Below, in pieces: positions 24,297 to 42,441 of a DNA stretch of 64,000 nt. The position numbers were made by a program, and so were the translations under genes. Under the pieces are notes generated by a model. That model made no database searches. It was not told where the DNA came from and saw only the letters and a program-made list of their open reading frames with translations. Source of the stretch: Gammaproteobacteria bacterium (GTDB lineage Bacteria > Pseudomonadota > Gammaproteobacteria > Steroidobacterales > Steroidobacteraceae); the NCBI GenBank assembly GCA_043738945.1, contig JAYUFB010000080.1:49697-113696 (forward strand). Direction: 5' to 3'. The first letter of the stretch is position 1. Each line of letters starts with the position of its first letter.

Positions 24297-25159
24297 TAGC
24301 GGCCTCCATGGCGGGACAAAGTCCACACTTGTAGCGCGTTAATTCCCAGCAACAGCAGGAATGACAATACCAACATGACCACCGCAATAGCGGTTGCCCC
24401 CGCGTAATCATACTGCTCCAGTTTCGTAACAATTAGCAGCGGTGTAATCTCCGATTTCATTGGCATATTACCGGCAATAAAAATCACCGAACCGTACTCG
24501 CCTACAGCGCGCGCAAAGGCCAACGCGAAACCTGTCAATAATGCAGGCCATAATGCCGGCATGATCACATGTACAAAGGTTTGCAAAGCGGAAGCACCCA
24601 GCGTCGCCGCCGCTTGCTCCACTTCATGATCGAGACCCTCTAAGACAGGTTGCAAAGTGCGCACCACAAAAGGCAGCCCGATGAAAGTCATTGCGACTAC
24701 CACCCCTAGCGGGGTGAACGCCACATGAATACCCAGAGGCACCAACCATTGCCCCAGCCAACCATTGGGTGCATATAACGCCGTCAAAGCAATACCGGCG
24801 ACCGCCGTAGGTAGCGCAAACGGTAAATCGACCATCGCATCAATGAGTCGCTTGAACGGAAAGGTGTAGCGCACCAACACCCACGCCACCAATAATCCAA
24901 ATACCGCATTGATTAGTCCCGCCAACAACGACGCGCCGAAGCTTAAGCGCAAAGATGCCAACACTCGAGGCGCGGACACCACCTCAAAGAAATGTTCCCA
25001 CCCCATGCCAAAGCTACGAATAAAGGTCGCCGACAAAGGAATTAAAACCACCAATGACAAATACAACATGGTGAATCCCAGAGTCAGGCCAAAACCCGGT
25101 AGCACGCGGCGCGGGCGGCGCAATTTCCCACCAGCATAGGTTACAGTTTCATTGGCCAT
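24296..25159 (-). CDS. cysT: sulfate ABC transporter permease
   Basis: EAA loop [24 protein letters not shown] 25159 lies 7 nt after the sbp stop, and the upstream track extension overlaps sbp. Confidence 0.9.
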
Positions 25160-26159
25160 AAATTCGATCGAAGACCCCATGATCAGCAAAATGGGTCGTC
25201 TGCGCCAAAGTCCAACCACCAAACACTTCGTCAATCGTCACCAGACGAATAGTGGGAAACCGCTGCTTATATTTAAGCAAAACTTTTGCATCGCGCGGGC
25301 GAAAAAAATGCGTTGCCGCCAGCTCCTGTGCCTCATGCGAATACAAATACTGAAGATAGCCTTCAGCAACTTTACGGGTTCCATGTCGATCAATATTCTG
25401 GTCAACCACCGACACTGGCGGCTCAGCGAGAATACTCAATGACGGCATCACCACTTCGAATTTATCAGCCCCCAACTCTTGGATCGCAAGATAGGCCTCA
25501 TTTTCCCAGGTCACTAGCACGTCACCCATGCCACGCAGCGCAAAAGTAGCACTCGCACCCCGCGAACCCGAATCGAGGACAGGCACATGCTGGTACAGTT
25601 TCCTCACAAAGTCCTCGGCACTGGCAGCAGTTCCGCCGGGTTGTTTAAGCGCCCAGGCCCACGCGGCCAAATAATTCCAGCGCGCACCTCCGGAAGTTTT
25701 AGGGCTGGCTGTGATCACCGCCACGCCCGGCCGTATCAGATCCGGCCAATCGCGAATGTTTTTAAGATTGCCCTTGCGAACCATAAAGACAACGGTAGAA
25801 GTGTAAGGCGCACTATTGTTAGGTAGGCGTGTTTGCCAATTAGTTGGGATTAAATGACCCACGCGCGCCAATGCATCCACGTCACTACCCAAGGCCAGCG
25901 TCACCACGTCGGCATCCAAACCATCGATTACCGCTCTCGCCTGTTTACCTGATCCCCCATGACTCTGATTAATACGAATCTCTTCACCGGATTTTTTTTG
26001 CCAATAAACAGCAAACGCCCGATTATAGTCTTCATAAAATTCACGCGTCGGGTCGTACGATACATTTAACAGATGGGCCACGCCGCCGCGATTCGGCGTA
26101 CAGCCCGAAGTGGCCACCAAAACTAAGACCAGCAATACAGCCGCTACTCGTAAAATCAT
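25149..26159 (-). CDS. sbp: periplasmic sulfate-binding protein
   Basis: Lipoprotein-like or signal leader ([15 protein letters not shown]). Sbp/CysP-type motifs [26 protein letters not shown] and VTWENEA. Confidence 0.92.
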
Positions 26160-26166
26160 TGCATCC

Positions 26167-27150
26167 TTAAGGACTATCGCGCAGCGGAATACGCAGCTCG
26201 CCTAAGACTCGATTGACTTCTTCGGCGGTCTCCACTTTTTCAGTCTCGCGCACTAACTTGCGTGGCAAATGCGGTGCCAGCAATTCTATAAACTCGTACA
26301 TATAAGCGCGTAACAACGCACTGCGACGAAATCCGATCCAAGTCGTATGCCCCTCAAATAGATGCGCCGCGTCTAACACCACGAGGTCGGCATCAATCAC
26401 GGGATCGACCGCTAAACGCGCCAAGATGCCGACGCCCAAGCCTAAGCGGACATAGGTTTTTATGATGTCCGAGTCACGCGCGGTCAACGCAACATCAAGC
26501 GATAGCCCTGCGGTTTCAAACAAAGCCGGCAGCGATGACCTCCCAGCGAAGCTAAACACGTAAGTCACGATCGGATATTCCGCTAATTTTTTTAAAGTTA
26601 ACTTACCGGCCGTGGCTAACGGATGGCCCCGCGGCACCACCACCGCACGATGCCAGCGGTATACCGGCAACCGCACCAGATGCGGAAATAATTCTTCTGA
26701 TCCGGTGGCAATAGCGAAATCAACCCGATCCTTGGCCACCATTTCGGCGATCTGTTCCGAGGTACCCTGATGTAAATGTAGACGTACCTTCGGGTACTGG
26801 ATACGAAATGCACGAATGACCTGCGGCAGCACATAGCGCGCCTGGGTATGGGTCGTCGCAATCGACAAGGAACCCCCATCGGCCTTACGCAACTCCGCTG
26901 AGGTGCGCCGAATATTTTGCATTTCGCGCAAGATATTAGTCGCTCGCGCAATAATTTCAGTGCCGGCCGCCGTGGTACGAGTGAGGGCACGACCCTCGCG
27001 CTCAAACAATTGAAAACCCAGCTCTTCTTCTAACATCTTAAGTTGACGACTCACCCCCGGCTGCGAGGTGTGTAATTGGCGCGCCGCCGCCGTGATATTC
27101 AAGCCGTTTTCATGTACGGCCACCAAGTAGCGTAGTTGCTGGAACTTCAT
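26167..27150 (-). CDS. cysB: LysR-family regulator, CysB-like
   Basis: The N-terminal [48 protein letters not shown] is characteristic of CysB/Cbl. It lies upstream of sbp-cysTWA and divergent from cysH. The start could instead be ATG 27156. Confidence 0.85.
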
Positions 27151-27277
27151 CGGCACTAGGATATAAGTTTATGGCGATCAATGCCGGATACCCTTGAGCG
27201 CCGGACATCACAAAATCGCATGTGCTCATAAGCACAAGTTCGTTTTCTAGCGGCTGGGCGGCTTTTATAGTGACAAG

Positions 27278-28033
27278 ATGTCTACTGGGCACCTCTCCGA
27301 ACTCTCTAAAACGCTACGCGAGCGCGCCGAAACCAGCATTGCGCAATTGCGCGAGGCGGTAGTTGACTACAAAAATGTCTGCTACGCCAATAGCTTAGGC
27401 TTGGAATCCATCGTTCTGACCGATCTTATCTGGACCGCCGTACCGCAAATCGAGATCTTCAGTATTGATACCGGACGCTTATATCCGGAGACCTACGAGC
27501 TTATTGGACGCCTACAACAGCACTACGGCCGGGCGCTTCGGATTTACTACCCCGAAACACCGCAACTAGAGGGCTGGGTGGCCGAAAATGGTATAAACGG
27601 ATTTCGCGAAGGCCTGGAGCAACGGCGTAATTGCTGTTCCATTCGCAAAGTCGAACCCTTTAGGCGTGCCATTTCCGGGCATAATGCCTGGGTGACCGGT
27701 ATTCGCCGCGATCAATCAGCGAGCCGTGCGTTTGCCGCTCCAGTCGAGTGGGATGGCGAATATGGACTACACAAGATTAGTCCCCTGCTCGATTGGAGCA
27801 AAAAAGATATCACCGACTACATCGCCAAAAAAGCTCTCCCGTACAACAGCTTGCACGATAAAGGTTTTCCCAGTATCGGCTGCGCCCCCTGCACCCGCGC
27901 AGTGCCCTCCGGTGAAGATGAACGCTCAGGTCGCTGGTGGTGGGAACGTGCTGAATCACGCGAATGTGGGCTTCACCCCCGACGCCAGGCTCAGGCGCTC
28001 GCGGTTCCGCGACAATCGCTATCGCAACACTAG
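27278..28033 (+). CDS. cysH: adenylylsulfate (APS)/PAPS reductase, Fe-S cluster type
   Basis: C-terminal ECGLH motif plus the Cys pairs RRNCCSIRK and GCAPCT. These pairs characterise the bacterial APS-reductase class of CysH. Confidence 0.9.
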   Translation: MSTGHLSELSKTLRERAETSIAQLREAVVDYKNVCYANSLGLESIVLTDLIWTAVPQIEIFSIDTGRLYPETYELIGRLQQHYGRALRIYYPETPQLEGWVAENGINGFREGLEQRRNCCSIRKVEPFRRAISGHNAWVTGIRRDQSASRAFAAPVEWDGEYGLHKISPLLDWSKKDITDYIAKKALPYNSLHDKGFPSIGCAPCTRAVPSGEDERSGRWWWERAESRECGLHPRRQAQALAVPRQSLSQH

Positions 28034-28223
28034 GGGTAGTGGTAGCGACCGTCCACGCTAACCGAAAGAGGGTGAGTTTTCAGTCAACATGGACGGCGCA
28101 GCCTGCAAAATCACGTGGTCACAAGATTTGAGTTCATTGCGCTGAGGCGCTTGAGCGCTGCCTTAAACTCTCGCGCGTAAGAAGCGCGCAATACCAGTGC
28201 GGCAGCAAGGACTGTAGTGATGC

Positions 28224-28367
28224 CTATGCATCCATACACCACAAGCTGGCCTTGGGCGAGACCCGGGGCAAGGTGCCCGCCAGTAAAATCAATGCGATAG
28301 GGGCCAGAGCGGCTACCGCTGCAATTGCGCGGGCAACGAAGACGTCTTGGTTGTGAGTGGCAGTCAT
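28224..28367 (-). CDS. possible 47-aa hydrophobic peptide, divergent from the two-component operon
   Basis: AGGAG followed by 7 nt and ATG 28367. Sequence MTATHNQDVFVARAIAAVAALAPIALILLAGTL.. A second hydrophobic stretch (VVYGCIGITTVLAAALVL) continues in another frame, so the gene may be frameshifted or spurious. Too short for the ORF track. Confidence 0.2.
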   Translation of the reverse strand: MTATHNQDVFVARAIAAVAALAPIALILLAGTLPRVSPKASLWCMDA

Positions 28368-28529
28368 AAAAAATCTCCTATTCAGTTGTCTTTGTAACGG
28401 TTCAGCGAATCAAATTCTCTACTAATCGATGTAAAACGCAGTTATCAAGATGTAAAGTTATGCAAGCATTGACGTAAATTTTCTAGGTCCCCCATTCTGA
28501 CGTTGCTGCGCACTGTCTTCATTCGGTTC

Positions 28530-28596
28530 TTTACAATGATTTACACTCCCTTACCGGCCTTTACGATCGGCTCAACTAGCGATCCGCGCCTATAAT
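28530..28596 (+). promoter_or_regulatory. four phased (T)TTAC boxes (CpxR-type, inverse orientation) plus a TATAAT -10 element upstream of the response regulator gene
   Basis: TTTAC at 28530, 28540 and 28560 and cTTAC at 28550 give exact 10-bp phasing. TATAAT at 28591-28596 ends 5 nt before ATG 28602, and no Shine-Dalgarno sequence is visible. Confidence 0.45.
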
Positions 28597-28601
28597 GGGT
28601 C

Positions 28602-29315
28602 ATGCTGCCCAGTACCGCTCCCGTGTCCTCTTCTGTACTTCTTATTGATGACGATGAGGAACTGGTGGATTTGTTGAAGAATTACCTGGAGCGCGAAGGT
28701 TTTTTCGTCGGTGGTGCCGAGGATGGAGAATCGGGTGTTCACGAGGCCCGGTCAGGGCGCTATGCGATCGCCGTAGTCGATATGATGATGCCACGCAAGA
28801 ACGGTATTGAGACTCTCATGGCCATTCGTGCCCACGGCAATATGCCGGTCATCATGTTAACCGCCAAGGGCGACGACACGGATCGGATCGTGGGCCTGGA
28901 AATTGGCGCGGACGACTATATTCCAAAGCCCTGCACACCGCGTGAATTGACGGCGAGAATTCGCGCGGTATTGCGACGCACATTGCCAAGTGAGAACACG
29001 GCTGATTCTGCTGGCGTGATCAATTCCGGCGCACTAATGCTCGACCCACAACGCCGGGTGATTCATTGGAATGGTATGCCGATTGATTTCACCAGTACCG
29101 AATTTAATTTATTAGAATTATTAGCTCGCAGCATGGGTACTCCAGTCAGTAAAAATATTCTCTCAGAGCAAGGATTAGGTCGGAAGTTGGCCGCTTTCGA
29201 TCGCAGCGTTGACGTCCACATGAGCAGTATCCGGCAAAAAATAGGCCGGGTGACGGATGGCCGATCGTGCATTTTGACCGTTTACCGCTTGGGATATCAG
29301 CTGATTCCCGAATGA
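28602..29315 (+). CDS. OmpR/PhoB-family response regulator (CpxR-like)
   Basis: Receiver domain (LLIDDDEEL, VVDMMMPRKNG, LTAKGD) and winged-helix output domain (FTSTEFNLLELLA, VYRLGYQL). Confidence 0.92.
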   Translation: MLPSTAPVSSSVLLIDDDEELVDLLKNYLEREGFFVGGAEDGESGVHEARSGRYAIAVVDMMMPRKNGIETLMAIRAHGNMPVIMLTAKGDDTDRIVGLEIGADDYIPKPCTPRELTARIRAVLRRTLPSENTADSAGVINSGALMLDPQRRVIHWNGMPIDFTSTEFNLLELLARSMGTPVSKNILSEQGLGRKLAAFDRSVDVHMSSIRQKIGRVTDGRSCILTVYRLGYQLIPE

Positions 29316-30379
29316 ACTTGCGACTAAAACCCCCTGCCGCAAAGCCCCTAGAACGTTTGTTTTGGAAGTTCTTTGGGTTAATTGTATTTGTGCAGATGGG
29401 TTCCGATCTGGCGATGCGCTTAATGTTTTCGGCGCGCCATTCAGTTGCCGCGATGCCTCCACACGCTCAGTCGCTAAAGATTATGCTTGAACCCTTTGAG
29501 GCTGACATTTTGGCAAGTCTCATCTGTGCTGCGCTGCTGGCGTGGCTACTCTTCAAACCCATTCGAAGTTTGCGCTCAGCACTATCTGAAGCGGCCGGCG
29601 GCAATCTCGATGTGCGCATAGCAGATCGCATGGGACCGGGAAACGACGAACTGCGAGATCTAGGCGCTGAGTTTGATCATATGTTGGCGCGCCTGCGTTC
29701 TCTCATTGTCGCGCAACGCCGATTACTTAACGATGTGTCTCACGAAATACGCTCACCCATGGCGCGAATTCAAGCCGCAACTGGCTTGGCCAGCCAGCAA
29801 CCCGAGCAGGCCTCAGCATTGATGGAACGTATTGAGCGAGAGTCGGTGCGAATAGACAAGCTTACGGGCGAGCTTTTGGCACTTTCGCGCCTGCAAGCTG
29901 GGGTCGATCACAGCTTGAATGAAGAAATTGATCTGCGTGAATTGCTATCGGTCATTATTGACGATGCGCAATTCGAGGCTCATGCCAAAGGGCGCGTCAT
30001 GCAAGTGGGCGATCAAATCGATGGTGTGGTGAGAGGCAATGTCATTCTGTTACGCCGCGCGGTCGAGAACGTGTTGCGCAACGCCATTAAGTACAGCCCT
30101 CGTAATGGTAGCATCGCAGTTGAAACCAAAACCGATGCCGCAGGCTTGCTGGCCGTCATACTCGTACGTGATTCTGGGAAGGGGGTTCCTGAGAGTGATC
30201 TTGCCAGTATTTTTGACCCATTCTTCCGCAGCTCCACGCACGCACGCAAAGAGGGTAATGGCTTGGGTTTAGCAATCGCCCAGCGGGTTATTGAAAACCA
30301 CGGTGGTGCGATAAGTGCGTCAAACATGCCCGGCAGCGGGTTGTGCGTGAGAATTGAATTGCCGCTGCTACTGGGATAG
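29312..30379 (+). CDS. sensor histidine kinase with a minimal periplasmic loop, HAMP and HisKA-HATPase domains
   Basis: ATGA overlap with the response regulator gene. Two TM segments separated by about 35 aa. H-box SHEIRSPMARI, N-box NAIKYSP, G1 DSGKGVPE and G2 GNGLGLAIA. Confidence 0.9.
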   Translation: MNLRLKPPAAKPLERLFWKFFGLIVFVQMGSDLAMRLMFSARHSVAAMPPHAQSLKIMLEPFEADILASLICAALLAWLLFKPIRSLRSALSEAAGGNLDVRIADRMGPGNDELRDLGAEFDHMLARLRSLIVAQRRLLNDVSHEIRSPMARIQAATGLASQQPEQASALMERIERESVRIDKLTGELLALSRLQAGVDHSLNEEIDLRELLSVIIDDAQFEAHAKGRVMQVGDQIDGVVRGNVILLRRAVENVLRNAIKYSPRNGSIAVETKTDAAGLLAVILVRDSGKGVPESDLASIFDPFFRSSTHARKEGNGLGLAIAQRVIENHGGAISASNMPGSGLCVRIELPLLLG

Positions 30380-30427
30380 ATGAACTTATGCGGACAGCGG
30401 TGCTCGCATGCATCCCTAGGATAAGCC

Positions 30428-31864
30428 ATGATTTACTTTCCCATGTTCTTCAATCTATCAGGCCAAAAAGTGCTGGTGGTGGGCGGCGGCGAAGTCGCTT
30501 TTCGCAAAGTCTCTTTATTAGTGCGCACGGGCGCGCTCATCACAGTCGTTGCGCCTGAAATCCAGGCGGAGTTTCGTCAGATGGCGTGCACCCATAGTGC
30601 CGCGCAAACACCAGTCCCAAAGACGCAACTTAATTTGCAGCTCCGCAAGTTCATTCCCGATGATCTCAACCAGGTAAGGCTGGTCATTGTGGCGACAGCG
30701 GATCGAGATCTTAACCGCTCGATTGCAAAGCTCGCCGAGGACAGGGCTATCCCCGTGAACGTCGTCGATGACCGTGAGGCTTCGCGCTTCATCGTGCCCG
30801 CCATCATTGATCGTGACCCTGTGCTGGTCGCGATTTCTACCGGCGGTGCCTCTCCGGTTTTGGCGCGTCGCTTGCGCGAACGCCTTGAGGCACTTATTCC
30901 TAAGCGTTTCGGTGGACTTGCATTGTGGTTACAAGAACTACGTAAATCGAGCGCAGAGCGTCTACCCAATACCGCGGCACGGCGGCGTTTTTTTGAAAGC
31001 ATTATCGATGGCGCGGCCGCGAGTCGATTCATTGAAGGAGATATCCAGGGCGCACAGCGCATCGCGCAAGAATTGCTGGATGCTACCGAAGCGCCGCTTA
31101 GGGTAACTGCGGTGTCCCCAACCACGACAGGCTCGGTGACACTGGTAGGCGCAGGGCCGGGCGATCCGGAATTACTGACTTTGAAAGCTTTACGTGCGCT
31201 GCAAGACGCCGATGTTATTTTCTATGATCGTTTGGTGCCCGAGGGAATTTTAGATCTCGCCCGCCGGGATGCAAGCCGTGTATGTGTGGGGAAAGCCTCA
31301 GGTGGGCCCAGCACCACCCAAGATTCCATCAACGCCCTGCTGATCCGACATGCTCAAAAAGGCGAGCGCGTCGTGCGACTCAAAGGCGGTGATCCCTTTA
31401 TATTCGGTCGCGGCGGCGAAGAATTAGAAGCGCTCGTGGTGGCTAAAATTAATTTCACCGTCGTCCCCGGTATTACCGCTGCCCTCGGCTGTGCCGCCTA
31501 CGCAGGCATACCACTAACCCATCGCGATCATGCCCAGAGTGTAACCTTCGTCACCGGGCACGCGGACAGAAAGGGCAAGGAACCCGACTGGCGGGCTTTG
31601 GCGATGCCGGGAACCACTGCCGTGTTTTACATGGGACTCGCACGGCTCGAACATATTGTCGAACGACTTCTCGCACACGGCGCGCCACCCTTGCGCGCTG
31701 CAGGACTCATCTCACAAGGGACCACCCACCGACAACGCGTCATTACCGCGACCCTTGCAGATATCGGTGCGGCGGCCGCGCTCGCACAGTTGGAGTCGCC
31801 AGGTCTATTGATAGTCGGTGATGTGGTGGCGTTATACGGGCCTTTAAGCTGGTACACGGGCTAA
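30428..31864 (+). CDS. cysG: siroheme synthase (precorrin-2 dehydrogenase / ferrochelatase / uroporphyrinogen-III C-methyltransferase)
   Basis: N-terminal Rossmann motif VLVVGGGEVAFRK. C-terminal SUMT motifs VTLVGAGPGDPELLTLKA and VVRLKGGDPFIFGRGGEE. Confidence 0.93.
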   Translation: MIYFPMFFNLSGQKVLVVGGGEVAFRKVSLLVRTGALITVVAPEIQAEFRQMACTHSAAQTPVPKTQLNLQLRKFIPDDLNQVRLVIVATADRDLNRSIAKLAEDRAIPVNVVDDREASRFIVPAIIDRDPVLVAISTGGASPVLARRLRERLEALIPKRFGGLALWLQELRKSSAERLPNTAARRRFFESIIDGAAASRFIEGDIQGAQRIAQELLDATEAPLRVTAVSPTTTGSVTLVGAGPGDPELLTLKALRALQDADVIFYDRLVPEGILDLARRDASRVCVGKASGGPSTTQDSINALLIRHAQKGERVVRLKGGDPFIFGRGGEELEALVVAKINFTVVPGITAALGCAAYAGIPLTHRDHAQSVTFVTGHADRKGKEPDWRALAMPGTTAVFYMGLARLEHIVERLLAHGAPPLRAAGLISQGTTHRQRVITATLADIGAAAALAQLESPGLLIVGDVVALYGPLSWYTG

Positions 31865-33820: not shown

Positions 33821-34930
33821 ATGACCAAGACACTCTGGATCGGCACTCGCAAGGGCGCGTTCGCGCTGCGTCAGGGCCTAAAGAAATCTGCTTGGCGTTT
33901 AGCGGGACCGCAATTTCTGGGACATATTGTTCATCATATCGTCCAAGATCCACGCGAACCTCGACGGCTGGTTGTGGCCGCCAAAACTGGACACCTAGGC
34001 CCTACTGTCTATACGTCTCTCAATCGCGGTCGAAATTGGCAGGAGGCTAAGTCGCCCCCGGCATTTCGTAAGGCGCGTGAAGGCGAAACAGCGCGTGCCG
34101 TAGAACGGGTATTCTGGTTGAGTGCCGGTCACCCGAGTGAGCCTGGAGTTTGGTACGCCGGGACCGCGCCGGCAGGCTTATTCCGTTCAGAAGATCACGG
34201 CGTTCACTGGCAGCCGGTTGCGGGTTTCAATGAACATGCTATGTTTTCTAAGTGGGCCGCTGGATTTCGAACCCCCGACGGAGAATTGTTACATTCGATT
34301 TGCATCGATCCGCGCGATGCCCGTCATATCTATTTGGCGATTTCCATCGGAGGTGTGTTCGAATCAGTGGATAGCGGTGCTGATTGGGCGCCGCTCAATC
34401 AAGGGGTCGCTGCGGAGTTCCTCCCGGATGCAGATGCCGAATACGGTCACGATCCACACTGCCTCATAGTGCATCCACAACAACCGGACCGGCTCTATCA
34501 ACAAAATCACTGCGGCATTTATCGATTGGATCGGCCGGCCCAGCGCTGGATCCGAATTGGTGACAAGATGCCTAAGCGAATCGGCGACATTGGTTTCCCG
34601 ATCGTGGCGCATCCGCGCGATGCTGATTGCGTGTATGTCATACCCATGGATGGTTCAAAGGTGTGGCCGCGTACCGCTGTCGGCGGAAAACCCGCGGTCT
34701 ACCGTTCCTACAATGCCGGACGTAGCTGGCAGAGGCTTGACAAAGGGCTACCCGGGAAACACGCTTGGTTCACGGTATTGCGTCAGGCCATGTGCATCGA
34801 CAATGAAGATTTTGGGCTGTTTTTCGGTACAACTCAGGGCGAAGTCTGGAGCAGCCAAAACGCTGGAGACTCCTGGCGGCGCCTCGCGCAGCACTTACCT
34901 GAAATTTACTCCGTGACACACGCGCTGTAG
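33821..34930 (+). CDS. cytoplasmic BNR/Asp-box repeat beta-propeller protein (sialidase-like / Ycf48-like fold)
   Basis: Five Asp-box motifs (SLNRGRNWQ, SEDHGVHWQ, SVDSGADWA, SYNAGRSWQ, SQNAGDSWR). No signal peptide (MTKTLWIGTRKGAF..). Confidence 0.8.
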   Translation: MTKTLWIGTRKGAFALRQGLKKSAWRLAGPQFLGHIVHHIVQDPREPRRLVVAAKTGHLGPTVYTSLNRGRNWQEAKSPPAFRKAREGETARAVERVFWLSAGHPSEPGVWYAGTAPAGLFRSEDHGVHWQPVAGFNEHAMFSKWAAGFRTPDGELLHSICIDPRDARHIYLAISIGGVFESVDSGADWAPLNQGVAAEFLPDADAEYGHDPHCLIVHPQQPDRLYQQNHCGIYRLDRPAQRWIRIGDKMPKRIGDIGFPIVAHPRDADCVYVIPMDGSKVWPRTAVGGKPAVYRSYNAGRSWQRLDKGLPGKHAWFTVLRQAMCIDNEDFGLFFGTTQGEVWSSQNAGDSWRRLAQHLPEIYSVTHAL

Positions 34931-34932
34931 CA

Positions 34933-35199
34933 GTGGAGCATACCGTTAAAATCGCCAGTCCACTCCGCTCCTATGTCCACGGGGCGACTCAAGTGCGAGC
35001 CCAAGGTGATTCGTTGCAAGAGCTGCTCGCCGATTTAGAGCACGCCTATCCTGGCATGCGCTTTCGCATGATTGACGAACAAGAACGTATCCGACCGCAC
35101 ATTCGGATATTCGTCAATAGCGTCGAGGCTTTGACCCTCGATTTCGCGTTGCTCAAAGAGGATGTGATCCATCTAATTTGCGCATTAAGCGGTGGCTGA
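34933..35199 (+). CDS. MoaD/ThiS-family ubiquitin-like sulfur-carrier protein
   Basis: 88 aa ending in ..ALSGG followed by the stop, the C-terminal Gly-Gly of the beta-grasp carrier. GTG start 2 nt after the BNR gene stop. Confidence 0.8.
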   Translation: MEHTVKIASPLRSYVHGATQVRAQGDSLQELLADLEHAYPGMRFRMIDEQERIRPHIRIFVNSVEALTLDFALLKEDVIHLICALSGG

Positions 35200-35200
35200 A

Positions 35201-36340
35201 ATGCTATCGGCCAGCGAACGGGCTCGCTACAGTCGGCATTTATTGTTACCGGAAATCGGCAACGCGGGACAAGAAAAATTAAAGGCCGCACGAGTATTAA
35301 TTGTCGGAGCTGGAGGCCTAGGTTCACCTGCCGGCCTTTACCTAGCTGCCGCCGGTGTCGGCACTCTGGGGATAGTTGATCATGATCACGTCGAGATTTC
35401 GAATTTGCAACGGCAGATTCTATTTGATACATCATCACTGGGGTTCAGTAAGGCCACCGCAGCGCAAGCGCGCTTGAGCGCGCTAAATCCGGAAATTACG
35501 CTGCAAGCCCATGAAGTTAAATTACAGCCCGACAATGCAGTCGAGTTAATACAACCCTATGATTTGGTCGTGGACGGTAGCGATCGGCTAAGTACGCGCT
35601 ATCTGGTCAACGATGTCAGCGTGATACTGGGTAAATCTTTGGTGTCCGCTGCTATTCATCGATTCGAGGGGCAGGCGATGACCTACAAGCCCGCCCAGGG
35701 TCCCTGTTATCGTTGCCTATTCCCGGAATCGGCCGAAGTTGCGATTCCGAACTGCGCTGAGGCGGGCGTACTCGGAGTACTACCGGGAATTCTCGGCGCT
35801 CTACAAGCCACCGAAGCGCTCAAACTCATACTGGGAATCGGCGAGCCCCTGCTGGGCCGATTGCTAACTTTCGATGCATTAGCAATGCGTTGGCAGGAGT
35901 TTAAATTTTCCCGCCGTACCGATTGCGCCGTCTGTGGAGAGCACCCCTCTATTTGCAACGCGCAAGACAGCGCTGCCGCCGCAATCGATAGCTCGCACAC
36001 TAACATCACTCGACTAGGACCCGAGCAACTCCATAGCTTGATGAGCGAGTCTCGCACCGACCGGGCGGCCCCCCTCATCATTGACGTACGAGAGACCCAG
36101 GAATTTAGCGTCAGTCACATTGATGGCGCAATGAATATCCCTATGCAAGGTTTATCGCAGGGTTTAGTGGATATTCCGCTGACCAAAACTTTGGTGTTTG
36201 TCTGCTACAGTGGTGGACGCAGTCTAGCCGCTGGGAAATTGGCACTCGACATGGGCCGCAGCAAGGTCGCTCATTTAGAGGGAGGCATGATGGCGTGGGC
36301 GCGCGCCCGAAATCCACACATGATTGTCGCAGCACCTTAA
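35201..36340 (+). CDS. E1-like adenylyltransferase with a C-terminal rhodanese domain (MoeB/ThiF, MoeZ type)
   Basis: ERARYSRHLLLPEIG and GxGxxG (IVGAGGLGSPAGLYLAAAGVG). Zinc Cys pairs CYRC and CAVC. Rhodanese active-site loop VCYSGGRS. ATG lies 1 nt after the MoaD-like stop. Confidence 0.9.
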   Translation: MLSASERARYSRHLLLPEIGNAGQEKLKAARVLIVGAGGLGSPAGLYLAAAGVGTLGIVDHDHVEISNLQRQILFDTSSLGFSKATAAQARLSALNPEITLQAHEVKLQPDNAVELIQPYDLVVDGSDRLSTRYLVNDVSVILGKSLVSAAIHRFEGQAMTYKPAQGPCYRCLFPESAEVAIPNCAEAGVLGVLPGILGALQATEALKLILGIGEPLLGRLLTFDALAMRWQEFKFSRRTDCAVCGEHPSICNAQDSAAAAIDSSHTNITRLGPEQLHSLMSESRTDRAAPLIIDVRETQEFSVSHIDGAMNIPMQGLSQGLVDIPLTKTLVFVCYSGGRSLAAGKLALDMGRSKVAHLEGGMMAWARARNPHMIVAAP

Positions 36341-36382: not shown

Positions 36383-37495
36383 ATGGAATTATCCCTTCCC
36401 TCACGCGACTATCTCGACACTGAAGTATTCAAGCGCGAAGTTGCCTGTATTTTTTCGCGCGAATGGGTCGCTGTGTGCCGAGCAGAGGAAATTCCGGGCG
36501 CGGGCGACTGGCAGGTGGTCAATTTGGTGGGTGACAGCGTACTTATTGTGCGCGGTAAAGACGACCGGCTACGGGCCTTTTATAACGTCTGTCGTCATCG
36601 AGGCGCGCAGCTGTGCGCGCCTAAGAATGCAGCCCTAAAGCCGGGCCGGGCGGTATTACCCTCATCGGTGCTGGCCAACGGAAATATCCGCTGTCCTTAT
36701 CACGCCTGGACCTATGATGCTGAGGGCGCTCTCATTGGCGCGCCATTCCTTACCGATGACCCAGGGTTTAGGCGCGAAGATTTTTCCCTCTACCCCTTGA
36801 GATGTGAGATTTGGGGTGGTTTTGTATTCATACATGGCTCGCCCAAAGAAGCGAAGTCGCTCGCCAGCCAAATGACACAGGTGTTGGCGCGCATTGCCAA
36901 CTACCCATTGAAGGATATGCGTATCGGTCATCGCATGCGCTACGAGGTGGATGCTAATTGGAAAATTCTCTGCGAAAACTATAACGAGTGTTATCACTGC
37001 GGCCCGGTGCATCCAGAACTATGCCGTTTGGTGCCCGCCTTTCGCATGAAGGGCGGTGCCGACCTTGACTGGCAAGACGGGATTCCGCATCGCGAGGGAG
37101 CCTATACTTTCACCTGGAGCGGCACCACTCAACGTGCGCCATTCAAAGGCCTGAGCGAGGCGGAAAAAACCAAACACAAGGGTGAGCTGGTGTATCCGAA
37201 TTTATGGTTGAGCATGGCCTGCGACCACGTGACCGCTTACATCCTGCATCCTATTTCCGCCCATCGTACCGAAGTGGAATGTCTATTCTTGTTTGCCCAA
37301 GAAGAAATAGCGAAGTCCGATTTTGATCACACCGATGCCAGTACTTTTTGGGAGGTGACCAATCAACAAGATTGGGCCATTTGCGAGCGCGTTCAACAAG
37401 GCATTGCCTCCAGCCAGCATAAACAAGGGTACTACGCACCCATGGAAGATATGAATCTGGATATGCGGCGTTATATTCGCGAACGCATGAAGTGA
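36383..37495 (+). CDS. Rieske non-heme iron oxygenase, alpha subunit (GbcA/Stc2/choline-monooxygenase-like)
   Basis: Rieske ligands CRH..CPYH and a mononuclear iron region NYNECYHCGPVHPEL. GTGA overlap with the soxB-like gene. Confidence 0.88.
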   Translation: MELSLPSRDYLDTEVFKREVACIFSREWVAVCRAEEIPGAGDWQVVNLVGDSVLIVRGKDDRLRAFYNVCRHRGAQLCAPKNAALKPGRAVLPSSVLANGNIRCPYHAWTYDAEGALIGAPFLTDDPGFRREDFSLYPLRCEIWGGFVFIHGSPKEAKSLASQMTQVLARIANYPLKDMRIGHRMRYEVDANWKILCENYNECYHCGPVHPELCRLVPAFRMKGGADLDWQDGIPHREGAYTFTWSGTTQRAPFKGLSEAEKTKHKGELVYPNLWLSMACDHVTAYILHPISAHRTEVECLFLFAQEEIAKSDFDHTDASTFWEVTNQQDWAICERVQQGIASSQHKQGYYAPMEDMNLDMRRYIRERMK

Positions 37496-38766
37496 GGAGA
37501 TCCTCGCCTCATTATTCCGCGTGGTCACTAATTCGCGCGCGCATGAAGGGCGGCTATTGGCAACCTCTTTGGACCGGTCACAAACTGCAAGCAGCTTATG
37601 ACGTCGTCATCGTAGGAGCCGGTGGCCACGGTTTGGCGACCGCTTTTCACCTGGCACGCGATCACGGCATTAAGCGCATCGCTATTCTTGAGAAGCGCTT
37701 AGTGGGCTATGGCAACGTCGGGCGTAATACCACCATCGTGCGCTCTAATTATTTGTTACCTGAGAATCATTATTTTTACGAAGACTCGCTACGTCGCTGG
37801 GAAACGCTGTCGCACGATTTGAACTACAACGTGATGTACAGTCCGCGCGGCGTGGTTGATCTAGCACTCTCGGATGACGAAATGTCGGGTGCCGCACGTC
37901 GCGGCAACGCCATGCGCCTTGCCGGTATCGATGCCGAACTTCTCGATCGCGCAGCGTTAAAGCGCTTCTGTCCAGAGTTGGACACCGAGCGCGAGAGGCG
38001 ATTCCCTATTGTCGGTGCGTTGCTACAACGACGCGGCGGCACTGTACGCCATGATGCGGTGGCCTGGGGTTATGCACGCGCCGCGAGCGCACTCGGGGTC
38101 GATATTATCGAGGACTGCGAGGTCACCGGTGTACAGGCTGCGGCCGGGATAGCGAGCGGTGTCGACACCAGTCGCGGCTATGTTAAGGCCGAGCGCATCG
38201 TGTTTGCGACCGCCGGTCACACCGCCATGATCGGTACGATGCTCGGCGTACCCATGCCGATCGAGACGCATCTATTACAGGCTATGGTCACTGAGCCGAT
38301 TAAACCGTTGCTCAACACCGTGCTGGTGTATATGTATCCCGGTCACGGCGAAACTTATATCTGCCAATCCGATCGTGGCGGGTTAGTGATGGGCGGAATG
38401 CTCGATGGCTTTCCTTCCTACACCCGTGAAGGCCGATGGGATCGCATGGAAGACGTGGTGGAAGGCGCGGTCGAGTTACTCCCGCAAATCGCCGGCTGCA
38501 AAATTCTGCGCCATTGGGCGGGTACTAATGACATGACCATGGATGGTAGTCCCATCATGGATCGACTTCGCCATGACAATGTATTCGTCAATGCGGGTTG
38601 GTGCTACGGAGGATTCAAGGCCATCCCCGCCTCGGGTGCCGCGTTCGCCACGCTCGTCGCAACCGGTAGCGCACCGGATCTCATAAAAGCCTATCGCATG
38701 TCACGCTTTGCAACCGGCCACCTGCTCGACGAGCGTGGCGGCGGTCCTTTCCCGGTGCGCCTATGA
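37492..38766 (+). CDS. soxB: heterotetrameric sarcosine oxidase family, beta subunit (FAD)
   Basis: SoxB-type N-terminus (YSAWSLIR..W..LW) followed by YDVVIVGAGGHGLATAFHLA. The physiological substrate may not be sarcosine. Confidence 0.88.
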   Translation: MRRSSPHYSAWSLIRARMKGGYWQPLWTGHKLQAAYDVVIVGAGGHGLATAFHLARDHGIKRIAILEKRLVGYGNVGRNTTIVRSNYLLPENHYFYEDSLRRWETLSHDLNYNVMYSPRGVVDLALSDDEMSGAARRGNAMRLAGIDAELLDRAALKRFCPELDTERERRFPIVGALLQRRGGTVRHDAVAWGYARAASALGVDIIEDCEVTGVQAAAGIASGVDTSRGYVKAERIVFATAGHTAMIGTMLGVPMPIETHLLQAMVTEPIKPLLNTVLVYMYPGHGETYICQSDRGGLVMGGMLDGFPSYTREGRWDRMEDVVEGAVELLPQIAGCKILRHWAGTNDMTMDGSPIMDRLRHDNVFVNAGWCYGGFKAIPASGAAFATLVATGSAPDLIKAYRMSRFATGHLLDERGGGPFPVRL

Positions 38767-39020
38767 CGCTCGCAACACTACAGACCCGCTTAGTATGTCC
38801 TTTCTGCGGACCGAGACAATTGAGCGAATTCGTATTTCACAAGACTTTGCCCCCAGCGAATGCTTCCCGCTTCGCCAAGGTCTATGAGCGCATTGATACC
38901 CCGCACTTGAGTATCGAGCATTGGCAGCACGTCCGCGGCTGCCGTAGTTGGCTACGCGTGCACCGCAATCCATCGAGTGGCGCCGTTCTCGAAATAAATC
39001 TACTCAGCGCCGCCACATGA
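38763..39020 (+). CDS. soxD: sarcosine oxidase family, delta subunit
   Basis: 85 aa with LVCPFCGPRQLSEFVF and a later H..H..C zinc-site pattern. ATGA overlaps on both sides. Confidence 0.85.
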   Translation: MTLATLQTRLVCPFCGPRQLSEFVFHKTLPPANASRFAKVYERIDTPHLSIEHWQHVRGCRSWLRVHRNPSSGAVLEINLLSAAT

Positions 39021-41962
39021 GCGCTCGAGCAGGCACACGCGGCGTACGGATTGGAACACGAATCGCCAGCGAATCGATACGATTTAGTTTTGACGGCCAG
39101 GAGTACCTCGGCCAAGCCGGCGACACCGCCGCCTCCGCGTTACTCGCCAATGGTGTGCGCGCGATGGGCCGTAGTGTCAAGTACCGCAGGCTGCGCGGAC
39201 TACTCGCGGCAGGGCCCGAAGAGCCCAACGCGCTTTTGACCGTGGGCAATTTTCCTAATGTCATTCCCAATGTATCCGCGCCCCAATTGGTCTTGCGGAA
39301 CGGTATGATTTTACGTAGTCAGAATCGCTGGCCGAGTTTGAAGTTCGATGTAGCATCTTTGTTGCAAGCGGGCGGCGGCTTATTGGGTGCGGGCTTTTAC
39401 TACAAAACATTTATGTGGCCCTCTTGGAAAACCTACGAAAGACTAATCCGCAATCTAGCCGGTCTCGGTGAAGCACCAGGTGCGTGTACGCTGCCTCCTC
39501 CCAAAATAATGTATGCCAGTTGCGATGTGCTGATAGCAGGTGCCGGCCCTGCGGGACTTGCTGCTGCACTGGCTGCCGCCCGCAACGGCGCAAACGTGTG
39601 GCTGTTCGAGCGGGAACCTGCGGTAGGCGGCGAGCTGGAATTTGAAACGAGTGAAGTCGATGGCCTGCCAGCCCAGCAGTGGATTGCCGCAACACTCGCA
39701 GAACTAGCACAACGCGGCGCAAAGATATTCACCAACACGACCATCATGGGAGGCTCTAGCGATCTAATCATTGCACATCGAGAAGCGGGCGGAATTCCTG
39801 GGGACAACACGGTGTACCGCATAAACCCTCGCGCGATGGTGGCCGCTATGGGCGCGGTGGAACGACCCATTGCCTTTGCGGGTAATGATCGCCCCGGCGT
39901 CATGCTCATCAATGCCGCCGAGAAATACTTAGCTCGCTACGGCGTGAAAGTGGGCAGCGATCTGGTGCTATTTGCCAATCATGATCGTGTTTATGCCGCC
40001 GCCGCGCGCTTACAAGCCGGTGGCATGCGCATCCGCGCCATCATCGATACTCGCCGCACAGCCTCGGAAGCGATCCCCTTACGCGCCGATCTCATGCGTA
40101 GTGGAATCCATTGTTTACTGAATACGGCGGTTCTCGCTACGACAGGTCGCCAACGCATCACTGGGGTAAAAATCGCACCACTCGATGCGCCACACCAAGC
40201 ACGTATCCTACCCTGCGATACTGTTCTAGTTGGCGGCGGATGGTCGGCACCCACCCATCAATCGGCACAATCGCACTTCATCGCGGGTGCTGAACACGGC
40301 TGTCTCGAACTCAGCGCCGCCCTGAATGATGGGTATACGGCAGGCCGCACCGCCGCCGCCGTCGCCGGTAAAATGAACCTGCCCGGGGCTGCGCCTAGAG
40401 GCCACGGCGACATGACGCCCCAGCTCGTGCCCTTCTGGCGCTCACCCAGCGACCCCACTCGCGAAAAAAACCAATTCGTCGATTTGCAAAATGACGTCAC
40501 CGTAGCCGATCTGCGCGCCGCGCTTAGCGAAGGGTTTAACGACATTGAGCACGTGAAGCGTTACACCACCCTCGGTGTAGGTACCGAGCAAGGTCGCACC
40601 AGCGGCTTGCTGGGCGCAAGTATCGTGGCGGAATTGAAAGGCGAACTCCTCACACAGGTCGCCACAAGTCGCGCGCGTCCGCCTTATTATCCGATGACCT
40701 TAAGTTCGCTCGCGGGACTGCGCGTTGGCGCGGCGCTGCGACCGACCCGCAGGACAGCGCTGCATCAATGGCATGAATCGAACGGGGGTGTATTGGAGTC
40801 CACAGGCCTTTGGATGCGGCCTCGATACTATCGGGCGAATGGCCTGGACGCCTTCACCGCAGGGGTTGCGGAAGCTAAACGAGTGCGTAGCATCGGCGGC
40901 ATCATCGATAGCTCGACGCTGGGGAAAATCGAAGTGGTAGGCCCCAATGCGGCAGCCTTCCTCGATACGCTGTACCTCACCAAGGCTAGCACTATTAAAA
41001 TAGGCCGCAGTAAGTACATGGTGAATTTGCGCGAGGACGGCATGGTGTTGGACGACGGTATTGTGCTGCGTCTTGCAAGCAATCGATTCCTAGCTACGGT
41101 GAGCTCGGGACATGCCGAACATATGCTCTCGCACTTTGAGTACTACTGTGTTGAGGGGCACGATTCCGCGATTACGGGCGCTGCCGCGATTTCGCGGACC
41201 CGCGCGGTCTCAGTCACCGATGTGACGGAGAGTTGGTCGGTGATTGCAGTGGCTGGGGCCACCAGCCTAAGCGCTCTAGCCCAAGTCTTAGGCAACGAGT
41301 GGCAAACAAGCCTCGCGCAACTGTCGCATATGGATTTCGCACTAGGCGTATTCCAAGGTCGCGATATCAAGGTACTGCGCGCAAGCTTTTCGGGTGAGCT
41401 TGCATTCGAGTTGCATTGCCGCCCGGCCATTGCGCTCACGCTATGGGAAGGCCTGATTGCCGCCGGTCTTTCACCCTATGGGCTCGAAGCTCTCGATATT
41501 TTACGCGTGGAAAAAGGTTACTTGGTGAGTTCCGAGATCAACGGTCAAACCACTCCCTTTGATCTCGGCATGGACGGACTTGTTAAAATAGGCAATCACT
41601 GTGTGGGTCGCGAATTGCTCGATCGACCTGCGTTTCATGAAGCATCAAGGCCGCGCCTCGTGGGTCTTAAAGCAGTTGATGGTAAATCCAAATTTCTGGG
41701 CGGCGCGCAGCTACTCAGTACCTTATCGCCTCGTCCCTGCGGTCACGTGACTTCTACGGTTTATAGCCCGACCTTCAATGAATGGATCGGCTTAGGACTA
41801 GTCGCTCGAAATCTAGAGCTTGGCACCACCTTGATTGCCAAAGATCCACTGCGCAGCGGCAACACCCGAGTGCTATTGGTGCCCCCGGTGCACTTTGATC
41901 CGAGCGGTGCTCGGATGAAATCTGTGCAACAAACCCAAAGTAAATCCGCAGTACCGCCATGA
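39017..41962 (+). CDS. soxA: sarcosine oxidase family, alpha subunit (NAD/FMN and folate-binding GcvT-like domain)
   Basis: N-terminus FSFDGQEYLGQAGDTAASALLANGVRAMGRSVKYRRLRGLL..EEPNAL. Dinucleotide motif CDVLIAGAGPAGLAAAL. C-terminal aminomethyltransferase-like region. ATG 39017 overlaps the soxD stop. Confidence 0.9.
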   Translation: MSARAGTRGVRIGTRIASESIRFSFDGQEYLGQAGDTAASALLANGVRAMGRSVKYRRLRGLLAAGPEEPNALLTVGNFPNVIPNVSAPQLVLRNGMILRSQNRWPSLKFDVASLLQAGGGLLGAGFYYKTFMWPSWKTYERLIRNLAGLGEAPGACTLPPPKIMYASCDVLIAGAGPAGLAAALAAARNGANVWLFEREPAVGGELEFETSEVDGLPAQQWIAATLAELAQRGAKIFTNTTIMGGSSDLIIAHREAGGIPGDNTVYRINPRAMVAAMGAVERPIAFAGNDRPGVMLINAAEKYLARYGVKVGSDLVLFANHDRVYAAAARLQAGGMRIRAIIDTRRTASEAIPLRADLMRSGIHCLLNTAVLATTGRQRITGVKIAPLDAPHQARILPCDTVLVGGGWSAPTHQSAQSHFIAGAEHGCLELSAALNDGYTAGRTAAAVAGKMNLPGAAPRGHGDMTPQLVPFWRSPSDPTREKNQFVDLQNDVTVADLRAALSEGFNDIEHVKRYTTLGVGTEQGRTSGLLGASIVAELKGELLTQVATSRARPPYYPMTLSSLAGLRVGAALRPTRRTALHQWHESNGGVLESTGLWMRPRYYRANGLDAFTAGVAEAKRVRSIGGIIDSSTLGKIEVVGPNAAAFLDTLYLTKASTIKIGRSKYMVNLREDGMVLDDGIVLRLASNRFLATVSSGHAEHMLSHFEYYCVEGHDSAITGAAAISRTRAVSVTDVTESWSVIAVAGATSLSALAQVLGNEWQTSLAQLSHMDFALGVFQGRDIKVLRASFSGELAFELHCRPAIALTLWEGLIAAGLSPYGLEALDILRVEKGYLVSSEINGQTTPFDLGMDGLVKIGNHCVGRELLDRPAFHEASRPRLVGLKAVDGKSKFLGGAQLLSTLSPRPCGHVTSTVYSPTFNEWIGLGLVARNLELGTTLIAKDPLRSGNTRVLLVPPVHFDPSGARMKSVQQTQSKSAVPP

Positions 41963-42441
41963 GTCACGCGCTCTTCAATGATTTTTCCTGCCAATTGGAG
42001 GAAATGCCGTCTTCAAGGGATTATGAGTTCATTGCATTTGGCGAGGTAGCCGATGAAGGAGTGCCCGGTGAAAGCGGGCCAGGTGACTCGGCGTTGCTGC
42101 CCATCGCACCCGGCCGCTGGTTTGCGCCCTCTCCCGACGCCGCGGTGCAATCATTCCTTGAGGCTGCAATCCACGCAGATTCAGGCACCGTGATTGATAT
42201 CAGCGGCAAGTGGCACGCGATGACGCTCATCGGCAGCGGCGCGAGCCGCTTACTCGCCAGCAGCATCGACATCGAAGCCGTATTACACAACCGCTCCTGT
42301 GCCGCACTGGCGTTGTTCGACTGCCCCGCGATCGTCGCGCGCAAACCCACGGGATTTTCGATCTGGGTACACTCCAGCTACGCCGCTCATTTTGTGAGGG
42401 TCATTCAAGAGCTGGGGGCAAGTCTAATCGCGCGCAAATAG
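41959..42441 (+). CDS. soxG: sarcosine oxidase family, gamma subunit
   Basis: 160 aa in the fourth position of the soxBDAG order, with an ATGA overlap. The DISGKWHAMTLIGSGASRLL pattern is typical of SoxG. It is somewhat shorter than usual. Confidence 0.75.
   Translation: MSHALFNDFSCQLEEMPSSRDYEFIAFGEVADEGVPGESGPGDSALLPIAPGRWFAPSPDAAVQSFLEAAIHADSGTVIDISGKWHAMTLIGSGASRLLASSIDIEAVLHNRSCAALALFDCPAIVARKPTGFSIWVHSSYAAHFVRVIQELGASLIARK

Follow-up and report, generated by a model that had tools for sequence, protein, structure and literature searches.

A gene pair encoding an Asp-box (BNR) β-propeller and a small ubiquitin-like protein (Ubl) with a C-terminal Gly-Gly was analyzed in a 64,000-nucleotide stretch of a Steroidobacteraceae genome (Gammaproteobacteria bacterium, GenBank assembly GCA_043738945.1, contig JAYUFB010000080.1, positions 49,697 to 113,696 of the forward strand), referred to below as the window. 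In the window the pair is followed by a third gene, for a ubiquitin-activating-type enzyme (E1) fused to a rhodanese domain. As judged from gene order, the propeller and its Gly-Gly-terminated, CysO-like Ubl are shown to form an obligate gene pair that recurs across phyla in two gene orders, and this adjacency points to an undescribed sulfur-transfer enzyme system. For the three genes of the window, the chances are in our estimation evenly balanced that they form a dedicated sulfur-carrier-protein module in which the propeller is the acceptor-side partner of the thiocarboxylated Ubl.

Conservation of the Propeller-Ubl Gene Pair

Related loci were collected by a scan of one genome per species, and the best 80 of at least 594 loci, with propellers 57-73% identical to that of the window, were taken as subfamily 1. 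They derive from Steroidobacteraceae, Burkholderiales, Cupriavidus, Casimicrobiaceae, Terriglobia, Blastocatellia, Planctomycetota, Nitrospirae, Bacteroidota, Leptospiraceae, Obscuribacter, and other lineages. In 79 of these 80 loci the propeller gene is followed directly by a gene for a Ubl homologue, whose start lies between a few and a few hundred bases beyond the propeller stop codon; the single exception is cut by a contig end.

A second subfamily, ∼33% identical to the window propeller, displays the reversed order, with the Ubl gene preceding the propeller gene. Here, metagenome loci were counted if they retained at least 330 nt of upstream sequence (n = 68), and the Ubl was directly upstream in all 68, at a median gap of 22 nt. 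The reversed order is also annotated in Pseudomonas aeruginosa, Ralstonia, Burkholderia, Mitsuaria, Azoarcus, Pseudogulbenkiania, Cupriavidus, and Chondrinema, and subfamily 2 includes members from the Burkholderia cepacia complex, Ralstonia solanacearum, and one Bacteroidota, Chondrinema. The P. aeruginosa pair is PA1355/PA1356, the core gene PA1356 having been identified via the N-terminal sequence printed in PMC6085387. Arthrobacter and Nonomuraea also possess the pair, in the order propeller then Ubl. Across both gene orders, the pair is kept in 147 of 148 assessable loci.

A first-pass annotation of the window, made from the sequence alone, had proposed the propeller as the partner of the Gly-Gly-terminated Ubl, a pairing without an assigned function, and the counts above strongly support that proposal. 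The same annotation had treated the BNR-MoaD-MoeZ trio as the unit and had suggested that its gene order be followed across genomes. When this comparison was made, the propeller-Ubl part of the order was borne out, but the E1 part was not: an adjacent E1-rhodanese gene was observed in only 31 of the 80 subfamily-1 loci and in none of 80 subfamily-2 loci. The conserved unit is the propeller-Ubl pair and not the trio.

Both subfamilies occur in the genus Cupriavidus, each with its cognate Ubl (L041, L043, L057, L077, and L080 for subfamily 1; L094, P0135-P0141, and P0163 for subfamily 2). At the level of the genus, this co-occurrence suggests two systems running in parallel, neither of which replaces the other.

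Properties of the Ubl

The window Ubl matches the Pfam ThiS family (PF02597) over residues 7-88 with 24.9 bits, against a cut-off of 22.5, and its sequence finishes with ...ICALSGG. The β-grasp ThiS domain and the free C-terminal Gly-Gly together place it in the MoaD/ThiS sulfur-carrier family. Among solved structures it is closest to 4n6e_B (entered as a ThiS/MoaD family protein) and 3dwg_C (entered as cfp10A), with E ∼1e-5 for each; we take these to be CysO from Amycolatopsis orientalis and Mycobacterium tuberculosis, respectively. The best NCBIfam match is SAMP1, below the cut-off for that model. Public annotations name such proteins “molybdopterin converting factor small subunit”. Assignment as MoaD proper was rejected, the score to TIGR01687 being 26 bits against a cut-off of 49.5, with no linked MoaE gene detected within 10 kb or among the scanned open reading frames (ORFs) of the window.

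A protein search with the window Ubl returned close relatives only. Among the best 150 of 921 cluster representatives at E ≤ 1e-3, no fusion was observed, all being small stand-alone proteins, and alignments that reach the Gly-Gly end of the query usually finish at the C terminus of the match itself. Consistent with this, the partner Ubls stop exactly after Gly-Gly in 75 of 79 cases in subfamily 1 and 74 of 75 in subfamily 2. The conservation of Gly-Gly in proteins that stand alone argues that the C terminus is probably used chemically. The Ubls of the two subfamilies are mutually homologous, with the tracts ...DEQ..lR.H... and ...ALSGG in common, and therefore propeller and Ubl have diverged together.

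Departures from this pattern are few. The Ubl of Nonomuraea gerenzanensis (L096:6060-6374), which lies downstream of its propeller, ends ...VLPALA and has no Gly-Gly, and two subfamily-1 Ubls (L055 and L065) run 15 residues beyond the aligned C-terminal end. These GG-less or extended forms may represent sequencing errors or decaying copies.

Fold and Relatives of the Propeller

Five Asp-boxes of the form S-x-[DN]-x-G-x-x-W are present in the propeller at residues 66, 123, 182, 296, and 345, where shuffled sequences gave a mean of 0.01, and Pfam matches were obtained to Sortilin-Vps10, BNR, and BNR_6. Residues 4-18 constitute the first conserved β-strands and bear a T9-R10-K11-G12 loop that is invariant across the family. 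Because the N terminus is itself a conserved strand, the protein has no signal peptide, and it is taken to be cytoplasmic. The closest solved relative is PDB entry 3b7f (phmmer E = 1.3e-154 across residues 5-367). An AlphaFold2 (AF2) model built from an alignment of 60 homologues shows seven blades with a predicted local distance difference test score (pLDDT) of 92 and a predicted template-modeling score (pTM) of 0.91; prediction from the single sequence gave a pLDDT of 34 and was not used, so that the model rests on the 60-sequence alignment. Comparison of the model with 3b7f by Foldseek gave a template-modeling (TM) score of 0.94 (E = 3e-50, 57% identity). The protein is thus a member of the Asp-box β-propeller superfamily and of the 3b7f/YP_299179.1 family. 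Its relationship to 3b7f is at the level of an orthologue, with seven blades and five Asp-boxes in common and no structural difference.

Entry 3b7f is the structural-genomics structure of Reut_B4987 (YP_299179.1) from Cupriavidus pinatubonensis JMP134, the function of which was given as “not known” (PMC2716378). It defines an uncharacterized family with an open central tunnel of 9 × 11 Å and an unusual blade closure, and its published description is silent on an adjacent Ubl (PMC2716378). A C. pinatubonensis locus (L043) has a Ubl gene directly downstream of the propeller gene.

Further structural neighbors identified by Foldseek comprise GH74 enzymes and the single-propeller peptide binders DAIP, Ycf48, and sortilin. 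Among the latter are peptide-bound structures, namely Ycf48 with a D1 peptide, sortilin with neurotensin and progranulin peptides, and DAIP with a thermolysin fragment. Sortilin and Ycf48 hold C-terminal peptide tails via arginines. Ycf48/HCF136, the sortilin Vps10 domain, and DAIP have the fold class in common with the window propeller, but identity amounts to only 8-17%, and these proteins are thylakoid-lumenal, secreted, or receptors, are not enzymes, and have no link to a Ubl or an E1.

At least 8000 matches were returned in each propeller search, and the public names within the family include “exo-alpha-sialidase,” “glycosyl hydrolase,” and “PSII assembly factor-like.” These names rest on the common repeat motif and not on functional evidence. 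Identity as a GH33 sialidase was rejected, the best match to a sialidase in the PDB having E = 0.5, with seven blades in place of the six of GH33 and no signal peptide. A GH74 xyloglucanase was similarly rejected: GH74 enzymes need two tandem seven-bladed propellers to form the catalytic cleft, whereas the window protein is a single propeller of 369 residues, and its alignments to GH74 proteins span just one propeller, with 16-21% identity and TM scores of 0.54-0.67. The sole NCBIfam glycosylhydrolase model touched by the propeller scored 59 bits against a cut-off of 175.

The consequences of such names are visible for PA1356. A twin-arginine translocation (Tat) signal was predicted in silico at its N terminus (PMC6085387); the predictor appears to have picked up the conserved N-terminal strand and TRKG loop. 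PA1356 is also said to promote colonization and biofilm formation in a transcriptome paper (PMC11538994), a claim that apparently stems solely from the “sialidase” annotation. Beyond the Tat prediction and this annotation-based claim, no statements on PA1356 were found in the literature.

Conserved Polar Residues of the Propeller

Across phyla, 114 residues of the propeller are near-invariant. Polar residues invariant in both subfamilies are R10, K11, H58, H158, D211, H213, Q228, H230, R284, R321, and T338, which the high-confidence AF2 model places where the innermost strands begin or in the B-C and D-A loops. In the propeller topology, the B-C and D-A loops make up the top face, on the side away from the Asp-boxes (PMC2716378). 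Residues K11, H58, H158, H213, Q228, H230, R284, and R321 are predicted to line the mouth of the tunnel on this face. Such a cluster, with three or four histidines together with arginine and lysine, could hold a metal and an anionic group. It could also grip a C-terminal (thio)carboxylate, much as sortilin and Ycf48 hold peptide tails. The one cysteine that is invariant in subfamily 1, C231, is variable in subfamily 2 and was rejected as a catalytic residue.

Some variation was seen in Rhodobacterales. In three members (L088 from Rhodobacter sp. CZR27, L098, and L099), H58 is replaced by Trp or Phe, with the other core residues kept. One Rhodobacterales propeller gene, which is divergent, lies beside egtB-egtD of ergothioneine synthesis.

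The E1-rhodanese

The window E1 comprises a ThiF domain at residues 10-243 (Pfam E = 2.7e-81) and a C-terminal Rhodanese domain at residues 275-368 (E = 2.1e-16), with CxxC motifs at 169 and 242 and the rhodanese motif CYSGGRS at 335. The protein scored 359.6 bits against the MoeZ equivalog model PRK07878, for which the cut-off is 647, and was likewise below the equivalog cut-off of the MoeB model; it has the architecture of MoeZ but is not a MoeZ equivalog.

The 31 loci with an adjacent E1 belong to Steroidobacteraceae-like gammaproteobacteria and to four sources outside that group: two Obscuribacter-type metagenome-assembled genomes (MAGs), one MAG labeled Planktothrix, and one unclassified proteobacterial MAG (L046). 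All 31 of these E1s contain two CxxC motifs, and nearly all have a recognizable rhodanese loop of the C-[RK]-S-G-x-R type. In several lineages, a rhodanese-fused E1 has been recruited beside the pair. In one Gammaproteobacteria MAG (L024:9100-12030), an insertion of ∼2.9 kb separates the propeller gene from the Ubl-E1 genes. It encodes a 520-residue tetratricopeptide-repeat-like protein on the opposite strand and contains an apparent recombinase fragment; the Ubl gene has remained with the E1 gene.

Proposed Mechanism and Alternatives

E1 enzymes of the MoeZ, Uba4, and MoeB type adenylate the terminal glycine of a carrier protein, and a rhodanese persulfide turns the acyl-adenylate into a C-terminal thiocarboxylate. 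By extension from these enzymes, the E1 would adenylate the Gly-Gly terminus of the Ubl, which would then be converted to the thiocarboxylate by the persulfide on the rhodanese cysteine. The thiocarboxylated Ubl may then dock on the propeller, with its flexible ...ALSGG tail entering the tunnel mouth on the top face, where the invariant residues described above are expected to lie. The resulting complex, with the GG-COSH tail in the top-face pocket, would be analogous to that of MoaD with MoaE. In a final step the propeller would fill the acceptor-side role that MoaE, ThiG, CysM, or TtuA play in their own systems, handing sulfur to a substrate, possibly aided by a metal held by the histidines, and releasing the Ubl with a free carboxylate. 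The pair could be an ancient, self-contained core; where no E1 gene is adjacent, a housekeeping MoeB or MoeZ would presumably activate the Ubl in trans.

The 31 rhodanese-fused E1s, the lack of E2 (ubiquitin-conjugating enzyme) and JAB peptidase genes, and a Ubl that resembles what we take to be CysO argue for a probable role in sulfur transfer over conjugation. From known chemistry, the lack of a JAB peptidase also speaks against a product that bears an amine adjacent to the newly formed thiol, such as cysteine or homocysteine formed via CysO or HcyS. We put forward tentatively, at slightly below even chances, the wider proposal that the pair represents an ancient unrecognized class of sulfur-carrier-dependent enzyme, in which the propeller is a sulfur-inserting or thiocarboxylate-using catalyst that makes or repairs a sulfur-containing metabolite, cofactor, or macromolecule.

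Several observations weigh against a propeller that accepts sulfur from the Ubl. No E1 gene adjoins the pair in any of the 80 subfamily-2 loci. A conserved third gene was sought in the 80 subfamily-1 loci and none was found, neighbor clusters beyond the trio being limited to at most 13 loci, and comparing the neighbors yields no candidate for an acceptor substrate or pathway. That the invariant residues lie on the top face was deduced from strand topology and order and not from coordinates, and in the description text for 3b7f no metal or ligand is documented. The variability of C231 in subfamily 2 means that a persulfide or cysteine relay on the propeller is not general. Finally, two Streptomyces and three Rhodobacterales propellers have no Ubl within 5 kb, and these retain K11, H158, H213, Q228, H230, R284, and R321; therefore, the core site may work without a Ubl.

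An alternative is that the propeller inserts no sulfur into a substrate and acts on the Ubl itself, either sequestering or shielding Ubl-COSH in the manner of a receptor or chaperone or serving as a TfuA-like thiocarboxylate hydrolase or sulfide releaser that feeds sulfide or persulfide to other pathways. TfuA, which hydrolyzes the ThiS thiocarboxylate, provides a precedent, the closest single-propeller structural relatives (Ycf48, sortilin, and DAIP) are non-catalytic peptide binders, and no substrate-supplying gene is conserved beside the pair. This explanation is nevertheless considered unlikely: the propeller is very highly conserved across phyla, both in overall identity and in its near-invariant residues, its invariant His, Arg, Lys, and Gln cluster resembles a catalytic site more than a binding surface, and why a cell would keep a dedicated Ubl merely for hydrolysis is left unexplained.

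Conjugation of the SAMP/Urm1/TtuB type, in which the activated Ubl becomes covalently bound to target lysines, with the propeller serving as the principal target (via K11, for example) or as a substrate receptor replacing E2 and the ubiquitin ligase (E3), is viewed as distinctly improbable. The Gly-Gly end of the Ubl, its adjacency to an E1, the sub-threshold match to SAMP1, and an invariant lysine, K11, at the proposed docking site are all compatible with such a process, and the two roles can coexist, since Urm1, TtuB, and SAMPs serve as both sulfur carriers and modifiers. However, no E2, JAB, or other deconjugating peptidase was found in any locus examined, every adjacent E1 bears a rhodanese domain that conjugation alone does not need, and the pair lies among housekeeping genes and not in defense or stress islands. 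The anti-phage Ubl-conjugation systems (Bil, Bub, CBASS Cap2, and 6A-MBL) were rejected as an identity for the locus, where E2 and JAB genes are absent: the PADLOC models of these systems yielded only Rossmann-region similarity to the E1 and matched neither propeller nor Ubl.

That a housekeeping MoaD and MoeB of molybdenum-cofactor or thiamin synthesis adjoin an unrelated glycoside hydrolase or sialidase by chance or for regulatory reasons, as the public names and a Chondrinema pair near annotated MoaE, XdhC, cysteine desulfurase, and SufU genes might suggest, is very hard to credit: it is contradicted by the synteny of the pair in two gene orders, by the lack of an accompanying moaE, moaA, moaC, thiG, or thiH gene, by the low scores of the Ubl to the MoaD model and of the E1 to the MoeB and MoeZ equivalogs, by a seven-bladed propeller without a signal peptide that has only Asp-box-level similarity to GH74, no significant match to GH33 sialidases, and a score below the cut-off of the glycosylhydrolase model, and by P. 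aeruginosa, which presumably has a separate moaD-moaE set elsewhere in its genome.

Relation to Known Sulfur-carrier Systems

Sulfur-carrier Ubls are the prokaryotic roots of ubiquitin, and the known carriers serve distinct sulfur-insertion chemistries leading to molybdopterin, thiamin, cysteine, methionine, thiosugars, thioquinolobactin, and 2-thiouridine. The module described here resembles MoaD/MoaE, ThiS/ThiG, CysO/CysM, and TtuB/TtuA, and from its sequences appears to belong to none of them. With the CysO-CysM-MoeZ(-Mec+) system of M. tuberculosis it has in common a Ubl nearest to 3dwg_C and 4n6e_B and an E1 with ThiF, two CxxC motifs, and a C-terminal rhodanese domain. In contrast to that system, the window locus has neither the pyridoxal phosphate-dependent CysM nor the JAB peptidase Mec+, the partner is a β-propeller, the E1 is below the MoeZ cut-off, and beyond the trio no neighbor cluster is present in more than 13 of the 80 loci.

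The likeness to MoaD-MoaE and ThiS-ThiG lies in a two-gene core in which the gene for a Gly-Gly β-grasp carrier stands beside that of a dedicated partner, while the E1 gene frequently lies at another locus. A ThiF/MoeB-type E1 activates the carrier, whose tail should reach into the active site of the partner. However, the α/β hammerhead of MoaE and the TIM barrel of ThiG are folds unrelated to a seven-bladed Asp-box propeller, and the window pair differs further in having no linked substrate-supplying genes and a Ubl below the MoaD cut-off.

In full-text literature searches, no paper was found that connects a propeller of the Asp-box type with MoaD/ThiS proteins. The searchable text of the 2006 and 2007 surveys of prokaryotic Ubls contained no propeller link; the 2009 E1-superfamily survey was outside the coverage of this search. 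What is new here is a candidate sulfur-carrier Ubl system with a propeller-type partner, which can be tested in tractable organisms and against a crystal structure that is already available. If the proposal is correct, an additional sulfur carrier would have a dedicated partner of unrelated fold. The pair itself is very widely distributed: it belongs to the core genome in P. aeruginosa, in the Burkholderia cepacia complex, and in Ralstonia, pathogens of the latter two genera among them, and it is present in many soil phyla. The pairing provides a testable hypothesis for 3b7f, which has been without an assigned function since 2007, corrects a widespread “exo-alpha-sialidase” misannotation that has already entered the literature as a supposed biofilm factor (PMC11538994), and may lead to a new thiolated product.

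Organization of the Locus and Its Surroundings

The coordinates of the three genes are given in Table 1. At the propeller/Ubl junction the DNA reads TAG(34928-34930)-ca-GTG(34933), and at the Ubl/E1 junction TGA(35197-35199)-a-ATG(35201), giving gaps of 2 and 1 nt that are typical of translational coupling; an alternative GTG start for the E1, at 35192, would give an 8-nt overlap with the Ubl gene. Promoter and terminator scans returned sites no more numerous than chance. The gene-level description in the first-pass annotation was accurate throughout. Its gaps of 2 and 1 nt agree with the ORFs and the DNA, its 369-residue protein with five Asp-boxes and no signal peptide agrees with the motif count and the conserved N-terminal strands, and its 88-residue MoaD/ThiS-like protein ending in Gly-Gly and ThiF/MoeB protein with CxxC pairs and a CYSGGRS rhodanese agree with the Pfam matches, the C-terminal sequence, and the motif positions. 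No MoaE, ThiG, CysM, or JAB gene was detected in the 10 kb to each side of the trio or in the further ORFs of the window that were scanned; the annotation had noted none adjacent.

Table 1. Genes of the propeller, Ubl, and E1 in the window
Feature	Coordinates	Strand	Product and basis
Propeller gene	33821..34930	+	369 aa; ORF, Pfam, PDB 3b7f match, AF2 model
Ubl gene (MoaD/ThiS-family β-grasp, CysO-like)	34933..35199	+	88 aa, GTG start, Gly-Gly end; Pfam ThiS
MoeZ-type E1 gene	35201..36340	+	379 aa from ATG; Pfam ThiF and Rhodanese

Upstream of the trio lies a sulfate-assimilation block (22351-31864) that contains ATP-binding cassette transporter permease genes (cysTW), sbp, a cysB-like LysR gene, cysH, and cysG. 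Genes for a response regulator and a histidine kinase separate cysH from cysG, and a PsiE-family gene follows. Of the sulfur-assimilation genes named in the first-pass annotation, cysH, cysG, the cysB-like gene, sbp, and cysTW are present, but the argument that they fit a sulfur-transfer role did not hold, as none of cysH, cysG, cysB, or sbp was found within 8 kb of the pair in the 80 related subfamily-1 loci. This neighborhood is particular to the window genome and is therefore not evidence.

Downstream (36383-42441, + strand), a GbcA-like Rieske oxygenase gene begins 42 nt past the E1 stop codon and is followed by soxB, soxD, soxA, and soxG. Together, these Rieske and heterotetrameric sarcosine oxidase genes resemble a cluster for the catabolism of N-methyl amines or glycine betaine, and they may be co-transcribed with the trio. 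As conserved operon partners they were rejected, since none of the 80 related loci has a counterpart close to the pair.

In those loci, the largest neighbor clusters beyond the trio are clade-specific housekeeping genes, for example those for ATP synthase, mnmG, parAB, and phosphoenolpyruvate carboxykinase, and a Pfam scan of the operon-like immediate neighbors in 20 loci returned genes unrelated to one another. Exporters of the EamA/RarD/RhtA type are encoded no more than a few genes away from the pair in four of nine annotated subfamily-2 loci (PA1355-PA1356, represented by L086/L091, together with L087, L093, and L094). A link to EamA exporters was dropped, as these belong to different EamA subfamilies and none was present in any subfamily-1 locus. 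Genes for VOC/PhnB-like (3-dmu-9_3-mt) proteins recur in P. aeruginosa and L070; like that of EamA, this recurrence is probably due to chance. On a plasmid of Chondrinema litorale (L090), the Ubl-propeller pair lies beside an annotated cysteine desulfurase, SufU, a lone MoaE, and a divergent XdhC, neighbors that at this one locus hint at a link to sulfuration of the molybdenum cofactor.

Elsewhere in the window (15447-17682, + strand), downstream of ECF-sigma and FecR genes, a 273-residue ORF with a TonB-receptor Plug domain is followed after 14 nt by a 466-residue ORF without a Pfam match; together these may represent a TonB-dependent receptor split by a frameshift or a stop codon.

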